DNA of 64,000 nucleotides from a virus. This document shows, piece after piece, positions 1,004-61,486 of the stretch. The stretch lies in the IMG/VR virus record IMGVR_UViG_3300004180_000001, positions 2,820-66,819 of that record; one strand, 5' to 3'. Made by a program: the position numbers and the translations under genes. Position 1 is the stretch's first letter. Every line of letters begins with the position of its first letter. The notes below the pieces were generated by a model. That model was given only the letters and a program-made list of their open reading frames with translations, did not search any database and was not told where the DNA came from.

Positions 1004-1630
1004 TTAAAATCCAAGTTCTCGCAGCCGTTTCAGCCCTGACTCCGAGTTAATATCATGCACCCGTTCTATTACGCCGTCATTCGAAGAGTGGCCACTGCCG
1101 GCGTCGTCTTTGTATTTTCCGCCCATGCCGTAGAGAACCGACTCCATGCGCACGTTGTTTTGTTGGATCTTCTCGAATTTGTACTCCCCGATCAGCCGTA
1201 AAGCGTCTGCTCGGTCCAACTGCGTGTAGATGCCTTGGGCGTTGGCATAATTATAGCCGGTCATCTGCATTAATGTAGAGTCAATATTAAGACCGTTCAT
1301 GTACTCCAGGTAGCTGGTGCCGAAAGAAGGCTTTGTTTTCGGTTTGTCCTTCTGCTGAGCAAGGTTGGAGTCCACTTCGCTTTTTACTTCTTGCAGGCGT
1401 TCCAGGAAGTAATTGAAATCGTCCTGGTCCGGCTTGTCGACGCCGCAGTGCTGGTGCAAAACAATGACGATGACATCCATTAACTCGTCATCTGAGACAG
1501 CCTTGACGGATTCCGCGGCGTAAACTTCAACAGCCATAAGGGATAAGTTAAAGCGTCTGGCTTTACTGAAAAATATAGAGGAATCGGACACTTGAATACC
1601 TGCCTGGGTTTGTAATGTATGTGCTGCCAA
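1004..1630 (-). CDS. Hypothetical protein (start uncertain)
   Basis: 208-aa ORF tiling with the holin-like gene and divergent from the tail tube gene. Confidence 0.6.
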   Translation of the reverse strand: MAAHTLQTQAGIQVSDSSIFFSKARRFNLSLMAVEVYAAESVKAVSDDELMDVIVIVLHQHCGVDKPDQDDFNYFLERLQEVKSEVDSNLAQQKDKPKTKPSFGTSYLEYMNGLNIDSTLMQMTGYNYANAQGIYTQLDRADALRLIGEYKFEKIQQNNVRMESVLYGMGGKYKDDAGSGHSSNDGVIERVHDINSESGLKRLRELGF

Positions 1631-1778
1631 GTATATCCGGACAAACGTTGCGGCGCAATTACCTAGAGGCTACGCTTCGGTTACCTTACAGCGGCAAGGC
1701 TTACGGAATGAACGCAATCCGTTGGCAACTTTTTGACGAAAATTGCTATTTTATTTTTCATTTTCAACGAGTTATTAA

Positions 1779-1787
1779 TGATATAGT
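1779..1787 (+). promoter_or_regulatory. Candidate extended -10 promoter for the tail operon
   Basis: TGaTATAGT in the AT-rich divergent intergenic region, about 70 nt upstream of ATG 1858. Confidence 0.3.
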
Positions 1788-1857
1788 ATTAGTATCTCCC
1801 GACCGAACCGACGGGAGCGGATTGAACCCTATTTTTAATAATCTCCGGAGATTAACT

Positions 1858-2697
1858 ATGTCTGTAGGACAGGTCGTAAATGATAAATTCTTAATCGGTA
1901 CGAGCGAACTTCGTATCGGCCCCATGTCCAGTGCCAACCAGTTGGACACAGGAGACTCCGTAGGCGTTATCGACGAGGCAACGCTCACCATCGGCGTAAC
2001 CTCTGTCGATTTGAAGGCACTCTTTCCGCGCCAGATCGTGGCGACGGCCATTGTCGAGCAGGTTGCCAGCGTAGCGGCTACCATGCGCGAATACTCGCGC
2101 AAGAACCTGAACGTGATGCTGGGCGGTGACGTTACGGCGTCTAACCCTACCGACGTAGCTTCAACCGTAGCGGTAACTGCAGCAGCCGGCGCTACCAGCG
2201 TAACCTTGGCATCAGCTGCAGGGTTGGCTGTAGGTGACTTGCTGGTTATCTACCCCAAAGGCTTTCCCGAGCTGGTATCGGTTCTTGAAATCTCTGCCAT
2301 CACAGGCGCTGTGGTAGACTTCCTTACCGGGCAAGTGACTCAGCACACCTACACCATTGGCGGCAGCAACCCGGTTGTTCATGCGTTCAAAGCGCAACCT
2401 ATCGCCATTGGATCGCTGGACAGAACCAACTACTTCTCCATGATGTTGGTCCAACAAGACAACCGTACCGGTCGTCCTGCTGTGGCATCATTCTGGAAAG
2501 GCGCTATCTCGGGTAACGTCGACCTGGCTAACAACAGCCAGGATTTTGCATCCAGTAAAATGGATTTCAAAATTCTTCGCCCTGCTTTGTCAGAATACTC
2601 TTCTGGCGGTGCGTTGTACCCGCTGCGTAATATCATTCCAACTCACAAGTCAGGTTTTGTTGACATGGGTGGAGCCGATAACGCAGTTATCGTGTAA
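1858..2697 (+). CDS. Major tail (tube) protein
   Basis: GGAG RBS before ATG 1858; 279 aa, beta-rich, with an Ala/Thr/Val-rich insert; first gene of the tail operon. Confidence 0.65.
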   Translation: MSVGQVVNDKFLIGTSELRIGPMSSANQLDTGDSVGVIDEATLTIGVTSVDLKALFPRQIVATAIVEQVASVAATMREYSRKNLNVMLGGDVTASNPTDVASTVAVTAAAGATSVTLASAAGLAVGDLLVIYPKGFPELVSVLEISAITGAVVDFLTGQVTQHTYTIGGSNPVVHAFKAQPIAIGSLDRTNYFSMMLVQQDNRTGRPAVASFWKGAISGNVDLANNSQDFASSKMDFKILRPALSEYSSGGALYPLRNIIPTHKSGFVDMGGADNAVIV

Positions 2698-2726
2698 TAC
2701 GAAGCTGATGATTTAATGCTAAACTT

Positions 2727-2752
2727 GAGGCCTGGCGTATGCTGGGCCTCTT
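2727..2752 (+). terminator. Stem-loop after the tail tube gene (weak terminator or stabiliser)
   Basis: GAGGCCTGGC-GTAT-GCTGGGCCTC hairpin with only a short U tract. Confidence 0.4.
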
Positions 2753-2770
2753 GCTATGAAGGAGTCATAA

Positions 2771-3991
2771 ATGGGTGTTAAACTTTTTCGCAGTACCGAC
2801 ACGGGAGCGCCGTCGTTAACCGGCCAAGCCGGGTCGTTGGTTGCTCTGATAGATGCGGTGCTTACCGCAGGGTACAATTCCAAAACCGTAACGATAACCC
2901 GATCAGGTACTACAGCCACGGCTAGCTGTACCGCGCATGGGTTTCCTTCTGACGGCCTTACGAAAGTCCGCATAGCAGGTGCCAACGAGTCGCCGTATAA
3001 CGGCGATCAAACTATCTTCAACGTCACCGCTAATACTTTTGATTTTACCGTCGCAGGGTCACCAGCTACCCCGGCCACCGGCACCATCACTGCCAAGGTT
3101 GCGCCCGCTGATGTTTGGGTGAAAGAATTCGCAGGTACAAATCTGGGGGTTTACCGAACCTCTGACGTAACAGGCGGGGGTAGACCGTATATTCAATTCC
3201 TGGATACGACGACTACGTACTGTCAGATACGTACCGCTGAAGTTATGTACGACGCCTCGAACGGAGCAAACTTTGCAACGGGTCGCTATATTCAAAAGTC
3301 ATCGACCGCCGACGGTACGGCTCGGCCTTGGGTTATAGTTGCCGATGACCGGTTTGTTCAAGTCCATGTCGCCTTCCACGCCAGTCACTCCAATATATTC
3401 GCTCCTGGAGGTTTTGGAGACATTACGTCAGAGGTTGCCAATGACCTATACGGGGGTATGGTTTGGGCTGGGTCTGTCACGGCCACGCCAACGACCCCTG
3501 GGGAGTCAAACTCTGTATGGACAAACAATATAAGGGAACTTCTGGCGGCTAGCACCACGTACCTGTCTGTCTCTGTAATTTTAGCTAGAGCTGGCGACGG
3601 CGTGGCTAAAAGTCCGTCAGGATATTTGGTAACGCCTTTTTCACTGAGACCTGATGCTTCAACTGCATCTTACCCTCCAGGCGGCGGCAACAATGGCAAC
3701 AATGGCCTAACTACGCCCAGCCCTGTTAATGGCGCGTATTACATGGATAGAATTCAGGTATACCAGGCTATGCAAATGAACAACCCAGTTAATGCAGGGT
3801 TGCGCGGTTATCTTCCAGGCATATATGGCCCCAGACACGCCAGGCCCACAGCTAATTTATCAACCTATGTGTCTACCTCACCCGCTACGTCAGGGCGTAA
3901 ATTTTTGGCACTGGACGTAGGACAGTCAGCGACTGCTTCGGCAGGCATGTGGGGGCAAATTCACGTAGACTTAACAGGACCTTGGAGATAG
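2771..3991 (+). CDS. Virion structural/tail-fibre-like protein, paralog 1
   Basis: 406 aa; N-term FRSTDTGAPSLTGQAGSLVALIDAVL; Thr/Gly-rich; ends VDLTGPWR; GGAG RBS. Confidence 0.65.
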   Translation: MGVKLFRSTDTGAPSLTGQAGSLVALIDAVLTAGYNSKTVTITRSGTTATASCTAHGFPSDGLTKVRIAGANESPYNGDQTIFNVTANTFDFTVAGSPATPATGTITAKVAPADVWVKEFAGTNLGVYRTSDVTGGGRPYIQFLDTTTTYCQIRTAEVMYDASNGANFATGRYIQKSSTADGTARPWVIVADDRFVQVHVAFHASHSNIFAPGGFGDITSEVANDLYGGMVWAGSVTATPTTPGESNSVWTNNIRELLAASTTYLSVSVILARAGDGVAKSPSGYLVTPFSLRPDASTASYPPGGGNNGNNGLTTPSPVNGAYYMDRIQVYQAMQMNNPVNAGLRGYLPGIYGPRHARPTANLSTYVSTSPATSGRKFLALDVGQSATASAGMWGQIHVDLTGPWR

Positions 3992-36088: not shown

Positions 36089-36955
36089 TTAATCGGCCAT
36101 CGCGATAAACTTAAACGCAAAAGGATTGAACGCCTTAACTCCAGTGCCTACCTTAACGCCGACAGATACGCGAGTAATGACCTCAAACGGATTGGTTTTA
36201 GGTTTGCGCATTGCCAACCCTACCGTATAGCCATCGAGTTTGCCTATACTTTTGGGCGGGATCTGCAACATTACCACTTCGTCATCCAAAGACCCGTCAC
36301 CCCCGGCGATGAATTTTGCCATAACCATTTTGTAAATCTTGCGCTCATAAGGTATGCCGCGAGATTTCCAATCCTGGAAAAAATCCACCAAAGGTTTTCT
36401 TTCGTCACCGTTTTGATGCAAGTCATCGTCAGAGTACACAACCTCGGGATCCTTGCCTCTGTCTGCCGGCGTGCCGATGTAAACGAACTGCTTGCGCTCG
36501 GCAATCATGTGGCAAGAGAATTCAGTTCCCAATGTGCTGCCGTCAGAGACTTGGAATTTCTCGTCCTCAAGTTTAACCAACGGGAACGACGTGAAGTCCA
36601 ACTGCAAATCTGTAAACCCGTGTTCAGCCAGGTAGGCCATCGGGTCTTCAAATTTTGACGCAACGGCGACCGACGTTTGCTGCGTCTCGGCCAGGTCTTG
36701 CGCGGGTTGCTGTTGGATTTCTTGGATAACTTCGTCAGCGACTTCTGCGATAACTTCAGTAGCTTCGTCGATAACTTCGTCAGCAACTTCTGCGATAACT
36801 TCAGTAGCTTCGTCGATAACTTCGACTTCGGCGACTTCGACAACTTCTGCTATTTTTTCTGGCGCTACGACAGCCGTATCGGCAGTGGCAGTGGCAGCAG
36901 CTGCAGCTGCAGCCAAATCAACGATGTTGTTTTCTTCTTCTTTAGGCATAGCCAT
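36089..36955 (-). CDS. Putative ssDNA-binding protein with an acidic N-terminal tail
   Basis: Very acidic low-complexity N-terminus and beta-rich C-domain; next to polA; GAGG RBS and its own terminator. Confidence 0.45.
   Translation of the reverse strand: MAMPKEEENNIVDLAAAAAAATATADTAVVAPEKIAEVVEVAEVEVIDEATEVIAEVADEVIDEATEVIAEVADEVIQEIQQQPAQDLAETQQTSVAVASKFEDPMAYLAEHGFTDLQLDFTSFPLVKLEDEKFQVSDGSTLGTEFSCHMIAERKQFVYIGTPADRGKDPEVVYSDDDLHQNGDERKPLVDFFQDWKSRGIPYERKIYKMVMAKFIAGGDGSLDDEVVMLQIPPKSIGKLDGYTVGLAMRKPKTNPFEVITRVSVGVKVGTGVKAFNPFAFKFIAMAD
36725..36824. repeat. 45-bp in-frame tandem duplication (2.2 copies)
   Basis: GATAACTTCGTCAGCRACTTCTGCGATAACTTCAGTAGCTTCGTC twice, encoding DEATEVIAEVADEVI. 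Confidence 0.9.
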
Positions 36956-48480: not shown

Positions 48481-48785
48481 GAACCCTCCGACGGAAAAGT
48501 TAGAAATACCGCAGTGGCTAGAAATCTGTCCTGCATAGGGCGCCACTCTGCGGTGTCGATGGTTTTAGGGGTGGATAGGTATTCAACTGCCTCGTCTGGC
48601 GTGTAGCCCTCAAACTTGGTCAGGTAGTGCGCCAGGCAGGTTTTAAAGTAGATGGCGTTTCTTACATCCAAATCGTCGGCTAACAACACTACATCTGCCA
48701 CATTCTCTTGAGGCATTTTATATGCCTTTATCAGGAACTGGGCGAGTCCTGACGGGACTTTACTAATTTGAATTGCTTCAGGCAT
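48477..48785 (-). CDS. Hypothetical protein
   Basis: AAGGA RBS; ATGA overlap. Confidence 0.6.
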   Translation of the reverse strand: MPEAIQISKVPSGLAQFLIKAYKMPQENVADVVLLADDLDVRNAIYFKTCLAHYLTKFEGYTPDEAVEYLSTPKTIDTAEWRPMQDRFLATAVFLTFPSEGS

Positions 48786-48803
48786 TTTTGTATCCTTTTG
48801 AAA

Positions 48804-48960
48804 AATTGGGTAAGTGAGAAGGCAACCCGCGCCCCGGACCTGTAATCGTGAGAACAGGCGGACGAGGCAGTACGGGTCCCTTTCCTCGGGGGTTATACAT
48901 CACCAGCCACTATCCCGATAACCGCTGGTCTGACACATCCCCTGTTAAGGGAACCGGCCA
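48804..48960 (-). ncRNA. Candidate pseudoknotted structured RNA, copy A
   Basis: GC-rich intergenic gap; shares motifs and covarying stems with 50693-50870. Confidence 0.65.
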
Positions 48961-48974
48961 GCTCGGTGGAAGTT

Positions 48975-49253
48975 TTATAATAAATTTATTATCTCTGCTT
49001 TGGGGTAGTGGTATTTACCCATCCACTCGCAACTTTCTGGATACTCGGCAGGAAAATTTTCATGAAAATCTTTTTCAAACAACTCTGCGGCACCTTGTTC
49101 GGTTGCGGTCGGGTTTGTAAGTCGATACCAATTTCCATTCTGTTTTCCGCTGTAATAGTGGTGTATTTGGGTGTCGCTAAACGACATAACGGTTTCTTTT
49201 ACTTCAAGAATTTCCTTGTCGCCTTTCTTGTAAAGCTTTCGTTTCAGTGCCAT
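48975..49253 (-). CDS. Hypothetical protein
   Basis: GGAGG RBS. Confidence 0.6.
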   Translation of the reverse strand: MALKRKLYKKGDKEILEVKETVMSFSDTQIHHYYSGKQNGNWYRLTNPTATEQGAAELFEKDFHENFPAEYPESCEWMGKYHYPKAEIINLL

Positions 49254-49265
49254 AAATCCTCCAGA

Positions 49266-49281
49266 TGTTCCACATGGAACA
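49266..49281. promoter_or_regulatory. parS-like palindrome TGTTCCACATGGAACA
   Basis: 15/16 match to the parS variant TGTTCCACGTGGAACA; intergenic. Confidence 0.4.
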
Positions 49282-49285
49282 TTGC

Positions 49286-49304
49286 CTGTACTCAGTGAGT
49301 ACAG
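49286..49304. repeat. Palindrome copy 3 (AGT)
   Basis: Exact; supplies the stop codon of the upstream ORF. Confidence 0.95.
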
Positions 49305-49597
49305 ACTTTTAATAACAATGTTTCAGTCGGTATGTGAAACGTGTATCGACTGTGTCCGTTCCTGAGACGTCGTTTGATCTTGTCTACAACTTGGTAGCCG
49401 TTGGGATACCCGCAGGCATACCAACGGCCTTTGTGAAGAGAGCCGACATAAACCATCATGCCGACTTCGACCTCTTCCCAGCTAACCCACCTGAACCCGT
49501 TAGGTACAGGCAATTCGCTCAAGCTGCTCAAGCTGCTTTTCACTGACGGTGCATTCAGTTCCGAATTTTTCAAAGCGCTCCTCCATGTCCGAGACAA
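49292..49597 (-). CDS. Hypothetical protein (true start probably near 49510)
   Basis: The C-terminal part fills the gap; the N-terminal part overlaps 49500-49682. Confidence 0.4.
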   Translation of the reverse strand: MSRTWRSALKNSELNAPSVKSSLSSLSELPVPNGFRWVSWEEVEVGMMVYVGSLHKGRWYACGYPNGYQVVDKIKRRLRNGHSRYTFHIPTETLLLKVCTH

Positions 49598-49682
49598 AGT
49601 TAATGTCCCATTCTTTGGACGCGTTGTTTAGGGCGGTTTCCAGGGTATCCTTAAATCCTGGAATATCTTTTACTCTTGGCAT
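49500..49682 (-). CDS. Hypothetical protein
   Basis: WDINFVSDM...SEKQLEQLERI motif. Confidence 0.55.
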   Translation of the reverse strand: MPRVKDIPGFKDTLETALNNASKEWDINFVSDMEERFEKFGTECTVSEKQLEQLERIACT

Positions 49683-49697
49683 CGGTATCTCTCTGAG

Positions 49698-50657
49698 TTA
49701 AGCGGTCAACAACTCGAACGCTTTGTTTTTTAAAGTTTCCCCAATACCGAACCAGGCTGAGCTGAGTCTGGTTTTTTCAGAGCCGCGTTCATGATCGACG
49801 TTTTGCGTGATGACGTTCATCATGCGCCACCTGGTAAAGCCGCCGTCAATGTCGCTTCCGATCAAACCTTTGCCATGGTACAGGTCCAGGATGTTTGAAT
49901 AGCCTGCCAACGCTCTCAAGTCTTTCTCTTCAGTAATGCTGGGCCTCATGTGCGCCATCATCTTCAAAGCAAAGTTTTCCGCTTCGGCTTCAACCAGTGG
50001 TGTTGCCGCCATTTCCTTAACTTTTTCCATCCAGCGTTGGTAGACTTCCGTGACAATGCCAAGCTCGTCTCGCATTTTATCCGCGCTGAATTGCATGTTA
50101 TGGGGCACCTTAACCTGGTGTCCGCCTTCGCGCAGCGACATTGTCAGCGTATTGTTGCAGACGACCCGCACCGATGTAAACCGGGCCAGTGTGGCCATAG
50201 TTCCATCGAAAGAAGTGGCCATCAACACGTAAGGCTTTACAACGTCCTGACCGATAACAGGGGCGCCGTCGCTGACCTTGGCCAGGCCCCATACCCGTCT
50301 CCCGCCGTCCAGTACGCCGGCCACTTCCAGGTCAAAGCCGCCAAGTTTGCACAGCTCGTCAAAAAAGTTGAGAACCTGGCTGGGCTGCACCAATTTGTAA
50401 TCCTTAGACACGATGGACAGCGGTGCGTTATTGTCGCTACGGTACAGCGCTTTCCTGGCCGGGAATTGAATGGCGTCCGTCTTGTTGGCCATGTAATAAA
50501 CATCGCTTTCCAGTACGTCGAAATCCATGCCGGACTCGACTCGCCAGGTTTCGATAGGCTGGCCGGGCGTCAGGAGTTGACCTGATTTGTGCCAAGGGGT
50601 TTGTCCGACGTAAGCGATAGACGCCTTGCCGTTTTTTGAATCTAATAAACTTGCCAT
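49698..50657 (-). CDS. DUF932 (TIGR03299-like) phage/plasmid protein
   Basis: AYVGQTPWH, YRSD..APLSIVS..Y..VQP, TSFDG and RVVCNNTL. Confidence 0.8.
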   Translation of the reverse strand: MASLLDSKNGKASIAYVGQTPWHKSGQLLTPGQPIETWRVESGMDFDVLESDVYYMANKTDAIQFPARKALYRSDNNAPLSIVSKDYKLVQPSQVLNFFDELCKLGGFDLEVAGVLDGGRRVWGLAKVSDGAPVIGQDVVKPYVLMATSFDGTMATLARFTSVRVVCNNTLTMSLREGGHQVKVPHNMQFSADKMRDELGIVTEVYQRWMEKVKEMAATPLVEAEAENFALKMMAHMRPSITEEKDLRALAGYSNILDLYHGKGLIGSDIDGGFTRWRMMNVITQNVDHERGSEKTRLSSAWFGIGETLKNKAFELLTA

Positions 50658-50692
50658 GATGATCTACTCCGTAAAATATTAATGAAATTAAG

Positions 50693-50870
50693 AATTGGAT
50701 GCGACAGCAACCGATACCTAAAGCGTAAGGAGGGGCGCAAATGGGTAACGCCGTATAAACGCTCTAGCAAGCCAATGGGATACCGGTCCTGCGGCCTCGG
50801 GGGTTGTTTCGATCCAAGTCACTCGCCCGAAATACACTTGTCCGCCCTTATTAACCTCAGCGGCTGAGGT
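50693..50870 (-). ncRNA. Candidate pseudoknotted structured RNA, copy B
   Basis: Homologous architecture to 48804-48960 with compensatory changes. Confidence 0.65.
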
Positions 50871-50877
50871 AGCACTG

Positions 50878-51255
50878 TTATCTGTTAAGTAGTTTCTTTT
50901 TAACTTTCTGTTTGTATGCAAACACGTCCAAAGTACAGTTACCTCCAAAGCTAACCCTGTCTCGCGCACCTGACTCTATCAGGTCGGCTGCTTCTTTGCA
51001 GTAATCCAGAAAATATTGCCCCGCTTCAATGTCGGTTTTCTTTCGTTCTTGAATAACTACCGAAACACCGGTAACCTCGTTAATGCAGGATACTTTGTAA
51101 TTTTTAACCGCCAGTATCTTAGCGGTCCTTAAGGCATGTAACCCGGCTTGTCTTTCCAGATTCAGCTGTAGGCAGTCATCAGTAACTACCCCGTTTATCT
51201 CTAGGGTAAGGTCGCCATCGTCCAGGTCTATGTCGATACTGATGAGATCAGTCAT
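50878..51255 (-). CDS. Hypothetical protein
   Basis: ATGA overlap. Confidence 0.55.
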   Translation of the reverse strand: MTDLISIDIDLDDGDLTLEINGVVTDDCLQLNLERQAGLHALRTAKILAVKNYKVSCINEVTGVSVVIQERKKTDIEAGQYFLDYCKEAADLIESGARDRVSFGGNCTLDVFAYKQKVKKKLLNR

Positions 51256-52140: not shown

Positions 52141-52182
52141 AAGGCCTCCAAAAAGATGTGTTATTGTAAATTACACTTGGCA

Positions 52183-52725
52183 TTATGTCAAGTGGTGAAG
52201 AGAGGGGCCGGGGTCTGTGTTGCTGTATTTTCCAACTGCGCTGAACGTATAGCTTAACCCTGATTCAGGAAAATTTACCGCGACAGGGTATGCTTCGTTA
52301 GCGCATATCTCTTCGACTACGCCGTTTAAAGACTTTAATCCCGTATCCCTTACGTAGGTCGGTATGTTAACGTGGAGTATGTTTTCATCGAGGACCCAAA
52401 CAACTTTATCTCCCACTTTAAACCTACGGTTACCTAAAAACTCTCTAGCGGCTTTCACCGCGGATTCGGCTTCCTCGCAGATAAACCAGCCGCCGTCTTT
52501 GTCGGGTTGGATAGCGTTTAGAAGATTCCGTAAAACGTCAGCAGGCGAGGACTCGACTTCCTTCAGGTCTACTGTAAAAGTTACGTCCGCTTCGGTGTCT
52601 AAGACTTCGAACACAAGCGCAGTGCTTTCGGGGTCTCGCTGTATTTCCAAAGCCGATTCAGCCGCTTCTGTCGGAGACTCGGCGTCCAGGGAAATTTCCC
52701 AGGTGACGCGATATTCTTTGGTCAT
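52183..52725 (-). CDS. Multi-module hypothetical protein
   Basis: GGAG RBS; YRVTWEISLDAESPTEAA N-terminal module. Confidence 0.6.
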   Translation of the reverse strand: MTKEYRVTWEISLDAESPTEAAESALEIQRDPESTALVFEVLDTEADVTFTVDLKEVESSPADVLRNLLNAIQPDKDGGWFICEEAESAVKAAREFLGNRRFKVGDKVVWVLDENILHVNIPTYVRDTGLKSLNGVVEEICANEAYPVAVNFPESGLSYTFSAVGKYSNTDPGPSLHHLT

Positions 52726-53102: not shown

Positions 53103-53121
53103 CTGTACTCAGTGAGTACAG
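53103..53121. repeat. Palindrome copy 4 (AGT)
   Basis: Exact. Confidence 0.95.
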
Positions 53122-60479: not shown

Positions 60480-60498
60480 CTGTACTCAGTGAGTACAG
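60480..60498. repeat. Palindrome copy 9 (AGT)
   Basis: Exact; fused to the RBS. Confidence 0.95.
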
Positions 60499-61429: not shown

Positions 61430-61432
61430 AGT

Positions 61433-61480
61433 GGGTTGGAGGGTTGGTGGGTTGGTGGGTTGGTGGGTTGGTGGGTTGGT
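61433..61480. repeat. (GGGTTGGT)6 tandem repeat
   Basis: Six 8-bp units, the first ending in A. Confidence 0.95.
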
Positions 61481-61486
61481 ATCCTT

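Follow-up and report, generated by a model that had tools for sequence, protein, structure and literature searches.

A pair of pseudoknotted RNAs in a phage genome, predicted to be a divergent subtype of the Proteo-phage-1 motif

A pair of structured RNAs on the - strand of a phage genome

The DNA analyzed here is a window of 64 kb (bases 2820-66819 of the virus record IMGVR_UViG_3300004180_000001, which comprises 66,819 bases and is rated 85% complete), and its subject is a pair of related intergenic elements on the - strand, copy A (48804-48961) and copy B (50693-50869); positions are those of the window. Copies A and B are a real, strand-specific pair of pseudoknotted structured RNAs with compensatory changes between them, a conclusion that is well supported by the comparison of the two. 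Very probably they are paralogs, predicted to be part of a - strand early polycistronic message, and represent a divergent subtype of the Proteo-phage-1 motif (Rfam family RF03044), with compensatory changes that re-code two of its five pseudoknot pairs. The pair is therefore not categorically new, being an unrecognised variant of a known, widespread and unexplained phage motif; the main value of the analysis lies in the confirmation of the pseudoknot, the widening of the family and the suggestion of a testable role.

The two copies share the same order of parts. A 5′ hairpin is followed by one A and by a 5-bp stem (P1) that closes a 16-nt loop, and this loop contains a 5-nt pseudoknot strand, two free bases (NN) and an invariant AGUG directly before the 3′ strand of P1. 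After P1 comes a linker of 12-13 nt ending in AAC-C and then the complement of the loop strand; the result is an H-type pseudoknot of five pairs between the P1 loop and the segment after the AAC linker, with NN-AGUG left unpaired. A spacer of 3-4 nt, a long 3′ hairpin, a CCAAUU tail, a Shine-Dalgarno (SD) sequence and an ATG complete the arrangement.

Covariation between copies A and B

A sequence-only reading of the window had proposed two diverged copies of a pseudoknotted RNA with covariation, and all the strings it quoted were found on the - strand at the positions assigned to them. The alignment of the copies bore out the proposal: of the 21 base pairs that were aligned in P1, in the pseudoknot and at the base of the 3′ hairpin, 13 are identical, three are changed on one side, five are changed on both sides and none is broken. 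The changes on both sides concern two of the five pairs of P1 and three of the 11 aligned pairs at the base of the 3′ hairpin. As a control of the register, the 3′ partners were slid by 1-3 columns, which left 9-16 of 32 cells able to pair, compared to 32 of 32 in register. RNAalifold, run on A and B alone, recovered P1 and the base of the 3′ hairpin. The fold is specific to the - strand because of its G-U pairs, which the sequence-only reading had taken to favour this strand.

The pattern is also rare. A 20-base pattern shared by the copies occurs twice in the window, compared to 0.00 occurrences in 100 shuffles. A structural descriptor (5-bp P1, 5-nt strand, NN, AGTG, then AAC, N0-2 and the Watson-Crick complement), in which the pseudoknot sequence was left free, matched only A and B on both strands of the window, and 200 block shuffles gave a mean of 0.035 matches and a maximum of one. 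No third copy was found in the window, either with the descriptor or with a covariance model. Contigs from four DNA runs had no variants in copy A or copy B and consequently offered no covariation at the population level.

Folding stability speaks on the other side, since the minimum free energy (MFE) was no better than that of shuffled sequences, with z-scores of -0.99 for the gap of copy A and +0.05 for that of copy B. The gaps themselves had been described as unusually large and GC-rich. Their size was confirmed, as 189 nt (copy A) and 220 nt (copy B) are, by arithmetic on the list of open reading frames (ORFs), the two largest gaps between - strand ORFs within 46-54 kb; the GC content over the copies (0.53-0.56), however, is only mildly raised in comparison with the surroundings (0.41-0.60). 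Because the folding energy is no better than in shuffles and the GC excess is slight, the case rests on covariation and not on stability.

It is extremely improbable that the elements are not RNA, being instead a short protein-coding gene or a repeated DNA site. Two shadow ORFs, 48848-49120 (+) and 50718-50969 (-), do overlap the copies, but they lie on opposite strands and match no PHROG family, while the changes between A and B are compensatory in helices, the conserved blocks are offset by a length difference of 1 nt, and the G-U pairs make the pairing strand-specific. The elements are thus not a coding feature, in line with the initial proposal. No tRNA or tmRNA genes were found in the window.

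Relationship to the Proteo-phage-1 motif

The Proteo-phage-1 motif reportedly comes from the motif survey of Weinberg et al. of 2017. Literature searches returned no functional study of it, and the main text of that survey (PMC5737381) does not mention Proteo-phage-1 by name. At Rfam's own curated thresholds no match was obtained in the window. According to the sequence-only reading, an Rfam match would remove the novelty; a permissive search, however, placed copy B in RF03044. Apart from RF03044, this search (Rfam 15, region 48500-51200, expectation value (E) up to 10) gave nothing but one noise match (E 9.9). Copy B (50793-50869) aligned to the whole 82-position model with 32.8 bits, compared to a gathering score of 42 bits that neither copy reaches; its E was 0.0019 across 4227 families and 1.1e-5 when only this family was searched for on the 66.8-kb genome. 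When RF03044 was searched for at E up to 0.01 in 14 control genomes, no match was found.

In the same permissive search there were no matches to known riboswitch or self-cleaving ribozyme classes. The suggestion of a ribozyme, a riboswitch or an anti-defence decoy found no support here, as no Rfam family of those kinds was matched and the contexts of the family point to operon leaders instead. Small pseudoknotted RNAs in intergenic regions of phages are a common home of ribozymes, and the unpaired bases are invariant here; nevertheless, a self-cleaving ribozyme is very improbable, given that no Rfam ribozyme family was matched and that the sequence-only reading had found no match to known cores either. 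Several riboswitch classes contain H-type pseudoknots with A-rich third strands, and a ligand-sensing leader would suit a pseudoknot with invariant unpaired AGUG and AAC just upstream of genes, as well as an alternative pairing, of an upstream GGG with a C-run, offered by RNAalifold. Such a leader appears improbable, however, because no riboswitch family was matched, the regulated genes have no common metabolic theme and no conserved expression platform was seen.

Several features of RF03044 were recognized in both copies. The 5′ hairpin is joined to P1 by a single A, in copy A in the MFE fold and in copy B in the Rfam-aligned pairing, where the MFE fold prefers an overlapping hairpin; the loop closed by the P1 of about 5 bp contains the 5-nt strand and, after two free bases, AGUG; AAC and one base stand directly before the 3′ strand of the pseudoknot. 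The order of parts is the same as in the family, from the two-tier 5′ hairpin through A, P1, the loop strand with NN-AGUG, the AAC-N linker and the complement to the hairpin, and both are phage-borne. The consensus AGCCGG and the downstream CCGGCAGCC, upper case in the model, are absent, and the window has UCGGG and CCCGA-GG with complementarity kept. The pseudoknot is thus GCCGG/CCGGC in the family and UCGGG/CCCGA in the window, and it is followed by AGC in the former and by the purines GG in the latter. The spacers differ as well, with 5 nt before the pseudoknot strand in the window versus 2-4 nt in the family and 3-4 nt after it versus 1 nt, and the 3′ hairpin is longer in the window copies. 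Moreover, the window carries two copies, whereas RF03044 records showed one match in 47 of 50 and none in three.

To sample the family, IMG/VR was scanned for the RF03044 consensus core, which gave at least 120 stretches. P1 around the loop has at least 4 bp in 110 and at least 5 bp in 107 of the 120 stretches listed, and among the matches listed AGC or AGT follows in 106 of the 110 with a P1 of at least 4 bp. Among 31 diverse cores, four of the five P1 pairs change on both sides, and the covariation score of P1 is 0.328, compared to 0.105 for shuffled data (reached in none of 500 shuffles). The RF03044 model, applied to 50 whole IMG/VR records with the core, scored 35 above the cut-off (55-82 bits) and 12 below it (20.8-37 bits) and missed three, and no record had more than one match. 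This spread of scores indicates that the Rfam model works well for two subtypes, whereas the others are missed or scored too low; the score of copy B falls in the 20.8-37-bit range of divergent subtypes that carry the exact consensus core. In a scan of genomes for the core, many of the matches listed were in Pseudomonas, Lysobacterales, Burkholderiales and Alphaproteobacteria, and E. coli genomes gave no match to the lambdoid-type RNA.

Searches with patterns of the window type were less productive. One IMG/VR match and 12 metagenome matches were obtained, all of them coding or without P1; locus L159 was examined as a window-type relative and dropped. A relaxed version of the pattern had 31 matches in IMG/VR, none of them convincing and one (L197) ambiguous. 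An automatic search for a conserved tail motif 3′ of the long hairpin was too noisy for use.

Re-coding of the pseudoknot

Compared to the consensus, two of the five pseudoknot pairs of the window copies differ in both bases: one G-C pair has become U-A, and one C-G pair has become G-C. Two scans of IMG/VR, each for one of these changes singly and in compensated form, returned six and eight stretches, and nine of the 14 were discarded as chance matches inside long ORFs. The U-A pair occurs in L350, a typical RNA of the lambdoid type, which scores 64.3 bits, above the Rfam cut-off. The G-C swap was found together with a P1 of 6-7 bp in L344, also above the cut-off (61.3 bits), and in L343, which has no Rfam match at E up to 1; L342 and L352, likewise unmatched at E up to 1, are ambiguous. 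An alignment of 15 rows (the two window copies, 10 canonical cores, L343, L344 and L350) showed pairing in each of its 75 pseudoknot cells, the variable pairs being G-C in 12 rows and U-A in three, and C-G in 11 rows and G-C in four, and AAC is invariant in 15 of 15 rows. We conclude that the pseudoknot is real and is re-coded in the window by two compensatory changes.

Several observations weigh against the assignment to the family. Copy A has no Rfam match at E up to 10, and our own covariance model R1, built from 31 family cores and run at E up to 10 with filters off, found neither copy. The counts of compensated variants are biased, because the search patterns demanded complementarity; their unbiased part is that genuine members with each change exist. 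When 401 Pseudomonas genomes were scanned with the last pseudoknot position open to A, G or T, one genuine member was uncovered, L357, which has an uncompensated G.A at the terminal pseudoknot pair. L357, from a Pseudomonas genome, is a typical lambdoid-type member with further changes near P1, and may be a decaying copy.

The first two of these points, together with the score of copy B below the Rfam cut-off, would fit a convergent look-alike, that is, a private RNA of the window phage with no common descent with Proteo-phage-1; so would the absence of near relatives from the pattern scans of IMG/VR and metagenomes and the different spacers around the pseudoknot strands. The failure of R1 was read as a limit of the model, because its pseudoknot strands are invariant by construction, which penalises the window variant. 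Convergence is unlikely, since the order of elements is the same, three invariant motifs stand at the same spacing, copy B reaches its low E-value on the genome, and members above the cut-off carry each of the pseudoknot changes singly. On the grounds of the architecture and the compensated pseudoknot, both copies are tied to the RF03044 family.

Genomic contexts of the family

The only INPHARED record with the RNA is Pseudomonas phage phiAH14a, in which it lies after NinB, NinG and a 228-aa phrog_3412 protein and before a holin, further lysis-region genes and the terminase. The phiAH14a coding sequence p55 (L148, KU708004 26084-26614), annotated as a hypothetical protein, runs antisense to the conserved RNA and was probably called in error.

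Downstream of the RNA, 150 of 227 distinct same-strand ORFs of at least 80 aa were scanned, with 23 holin, 12 Rz-like spanin, 6 Mu-type transposase and 2 large terminase family matches; upstream, 150 of 189 ORFs gave 18 phrog_3412, 15 phrog_3373, 6 NinG and 6 Q-like antiterminator matches, and a few matches to repressor or helix-turn-helix (HTH) families. These tallies are minimum counts, because the ORFs were called crudely in GC-rich DNA and most of those scanned are probably spurious. The phrog_3412 and phrog_3373 proteins hold the Q position between NinG and the RNA (L148 3016-3702 and many IMG/VR loci) and are candidates for late-gene regulators; the phrog_3412 example that was searched had no Pfam match.

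Different forms of the RNA occupy different positions. In the lambdoid form the conserved RNA is about 240 nt long, far longer than the 82 positions of the Rfam model, and extends from beyond upstream terminators into its own intrinsic terminator, which precedes the late genes. In Mu-like records its distance from a genome end is less than 1.3 kb, and it is flanked by a Ner-like HTH gene on one side and by the transposase gene on the other. In a third subtype the core and P1 fall within uninterrupted primase-helicase ORFs, where they occupy the linker that joins the primase part to the helicase part (L119, 2284-2327 within ORF 1296-3860; also L099, L109 and L132). Finally, in the short forms L064, L097 and L344, the 3′ hairpin leads through a short tail into an SD sequence and ATG, as in the window copies. 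A location of the motif at prophage ends, by att sites, was considered and dropped, as the Rfam matches are mid-genome in complete proviruses.

The gene after copy B encodes a DUF932 protein (Pfam E 7.6e-50). None of 23 IMG/VR loci with DUF932 relatives has the RNA upstream, and for this reason the RNA is not regarded as tied to DUF932. The DUF932 genes of other viral contigs (L006-L026) have in common, about 60 nt upstream of the start, a short leader that contains a small hairpin and a promoter-like palindromic box but no pseudoknot RNA.

Candidate functions

Action of the copies in cis is the moderately favored possibility. An element that acts in the nascent RNA on elongation or termination is preferred because the family lies near the starts of long operons, has varied neighbours and, in the lambdoid form, stands just ahead of a terminator that transcription of the late genes has to cross; a position at the head of long operons with differing neighbour proteins fits an element that uses the host machinery. 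By analogy with the put RNAs of phage HK022, a cis operon-leader RNA for processive antitermination can be put forward tentatively. The nascent RNA would fold behind RNA polymerase and act on the very elongation complex that made it; this complex, perhaps assisted by a factor from the host or the phage, would then read past the terminators or Rho sites along a long operon. The binding or modification of RNA polymerase by the RNA is an entirely inferred step. Generalized further, the Proteo-phage-1 superfamily, including A and B, might constitute a second class of processive antiterminator RNAs that need no protein; its members would act as put does but, being based on an H-type pseudoknot, would have no structural relationship to it. 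Proteobacterial phages of the lambdoid, Mu-like and virulent kinds would carry such RNAs where long operons begin, and A and B would serve two early transcription units. This broad version is doubtful.

Antitermination has to be weighed against a number of observations. The parallel with put is one of position only, because the put fold consists of two stem-loops and a triplex without a pseudoknot. The lambdoid members adjoin Q-position proteins that could themselves antiterminate, and no clear terminator was found after copy A or copy B. No RNA run was among the 10 runs listed as containing the stretch. Furthermore, the copies lie on the same strand 1.9 kb apart and end at 27 nt (copy A) and 48 nt (copy B) from the start codon, an arrangement that suits a translational role equally.

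Indeed, a role in translation or message stability is nearly as likely as antitermination. The leaders of T4 gene 32 and rpsO use pseudoknots as translational operators or ribosome-loading elements, and in a comparable manner the copies could be translational operators, ribosome-loading elements or mRNA processing or stability elements for the next gene, the pseudoknot and hairpin nucleating a protein or the 30S subunit at the AU-rich SD tail or protecting the message. Taken by itself the proposal is rather unlikely, although the short distances to the ATG, the SD sequence in a single-stranded tail and the same continuation in L064, L097 and L344 agree with it, and an internal start is conceivable in the inter-domain linker of the primase-helicases. 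The downstream genes are unrelated (DUF932, a 102-aa protein of unknown function, holins, a small ORF before the transposase), which makes an autoregulating protein partner unlikely; in addition, the lambdoid core is separated from the next gene by a terminator and more than 100 nt, and no Rfam leader family was matched.

The same lambdoid form, placed between upstream terminators and its own terminator, resembles a free-standing RNA of about 240 nt, and Rfam gives RF03044 the type 'Gene; sRNA'. The RNA could accordingly be a trans-acting small RNA or decoy, cut or terminated from the transcript, that binds a host factor or defence protein or base-pairs with a target. This is quite unlikely, considering that the window copies have no terminator of their own and run into the SD sequence of the next gene, that no target or partner was identified and that the contexts are operon-internal. 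Altogether, the trans-acting small RNA, riboswitch and ribozyme readings find little support.

Architecture of copies A and B

Copy A lies on the - strand, where a gap of 189 nt separates a 92-aa ORF from a 102-aa ORF. Its two-tier 5′ hairpin (48930-48961) was defined from the MFE fold and the sequence, and the Rfam consensus has the same layout of hairpin, A and P1. The outer 5 bp pair 48961-48957 with 48934-48930, the inner 7 bp close a 4-nt loop, and the single A is at 48929. P1 and the 16-nt loop span 48903-48928, P1 pairing 48928-48924 with 48907-48903; within the loop, the pseudoknot strand is at 48918-48914 and AGUG at 48911-48908. The linker and the 3′ pseudoknot strand (48886-48902) comprise AAC at 48894-48892, one C and the strand at 48890-48886. 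The long 3′ hairpin (48819-48882) measures 64 nt, with -31.1 kcal/mol and a bulged G near its base. The single-stranded tail (48783-48818) holds CCAAUU (48809-48804), the SD sequence AAGGA (48797-48793) and the ATG (48785-48783) of the 102-aa ORF.

Copy B is located in the 220-nt gap between a 125-aa ORF and the DUF932 gene, also on the - strand. Its 5′ hairpin (50842-50869) admits two mutually exclusive pairings: 50869-50864 with 50860-50855, as in the MFE fold, or 50863-50859 with 50846-50842, as in the Rfam alignment, the latter abutting A50841 and P1 as in the family. P1 and the 16-nt loop extend over 50815-50840 (P1 50840-50836 with 50819-50815; pseudoknot strand 50830-50826; AGUG 50823-50820), followed by the linker and the 3′ pseudoknot strand (50797-50814), with AAC at 50805-50803, one C and the strand at 50801-50797. 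The long 3′ hairpin (50704-50792) reaches 89 nt, again with -31.1 kcal/mol and the same bulged G. In the tail (50655-50703), CCAAUU (50698-50693) is followed by an AU-rich stretch, the SD sequence GGAG (50670-50667) and the ATG (50657-50655) of the DUF932 gene. The start codons at 48785 and 50657 are those already picked out in the sequence-only reading.

The phage genome and the surroundings of the copies

The structural genes of the phage are on the + strand, up to about 19.7 kb, and include a 1999-aa tape measure protein. On the - strand there are genes for an SbcCD-like nuclease, a Dda-like helicase, a DNA polymerase, a further helicase and a primase, and a block of small genes runs on this strand from 64 kb down to 45 kb, upstream of the primase. 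The phage, which is tailed and uncultured, looks virulent and siphovirus-like, and it is unrelated to the lambdoid and Mu-like carriers of Proteo-phage-1. A blastn search found no near relatives among 50,697 phage records, and neither the primase nor the 240-aa neighbour protein had relatives in IMG/VR. The DNA runs containing the stretch are labelled freshwater sediment metagenome.

A perfect 19-nt palindrome, with 8-bp arms and a 3-nt centre, recurs at 14 intergenic sites within 37009-63968 (e.g., 49286-49304, 53103-53121 and 60480-60498), one of them between the RNA copies B and A. It often lies directly 5′ of the SD sequence of - strand genes and may serve as an operator, as a promoter element or as a hairpin for RNA processing. 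A run of G-rich 8-nt units on the + strand (61431-61486) adjoins one of the palindromes. Tandem repeats of 21-45 nt are present at 36719-36869, within a 288-aa ORF (36089-36955, - strand). The top match to a sigma-70-like promoter in 44.5-64 kb (11 of 12 positions) is at 52163-52191 on the - strand, about 1.3 kb upstream of copy B.

Comparison with known systems

The family extends well beyond the present Rfam model in both size and variety. It marks the start of long phage operons, late ones after the Q position and early ones in Mu-like phages, and also occurs inside primase genes; it thereby offers a testable hypothesis of RNA-based control of elongation or termination, for which Pseudomonas phage phiAH14a and Pseudomonas prophages are tractable relatives. 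If the hypothesis is true, a widespread RNA mechanism would be added to the timing of phage genes, and phage annotation would be improved, the RNA of phiAH14a now appearing as a spurious antisense protein.

Phage HK022 likewise has two similar copies of a structured RNA, putL and putR, downstream of the promoters of long early operons (PMC9378689). The put RNAs are cis-acting processive antiterminators that are not tied to one downstream gene; about 70 nt in length, they consist of two stem-loops and a short triplex and lack a pseudoknot (PMC9378689). The put copies are also set apart by their position in divergent operons, whereas the window copies stand in tandem on one strand; the hallmarks of put are a triplex in stem I, binding to the zinc-binding domain of beta′ and read-through in cis, and the fold in the window differs from put as described there.

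A second comparison is with the leader of the lambda PR′-6S transcript and its terminator tR′. The lambdoid members of the family resemble it in following a gene at the Q position, preceding the holin and ending in an intrinsic terminator, while the window phage is not lambdoid and has its copies among small early genes. To our knowledge no conserved pseudoknot has been described in the lambda leader, whose position, together with tR′, is exactly that of the lambdoid family members.

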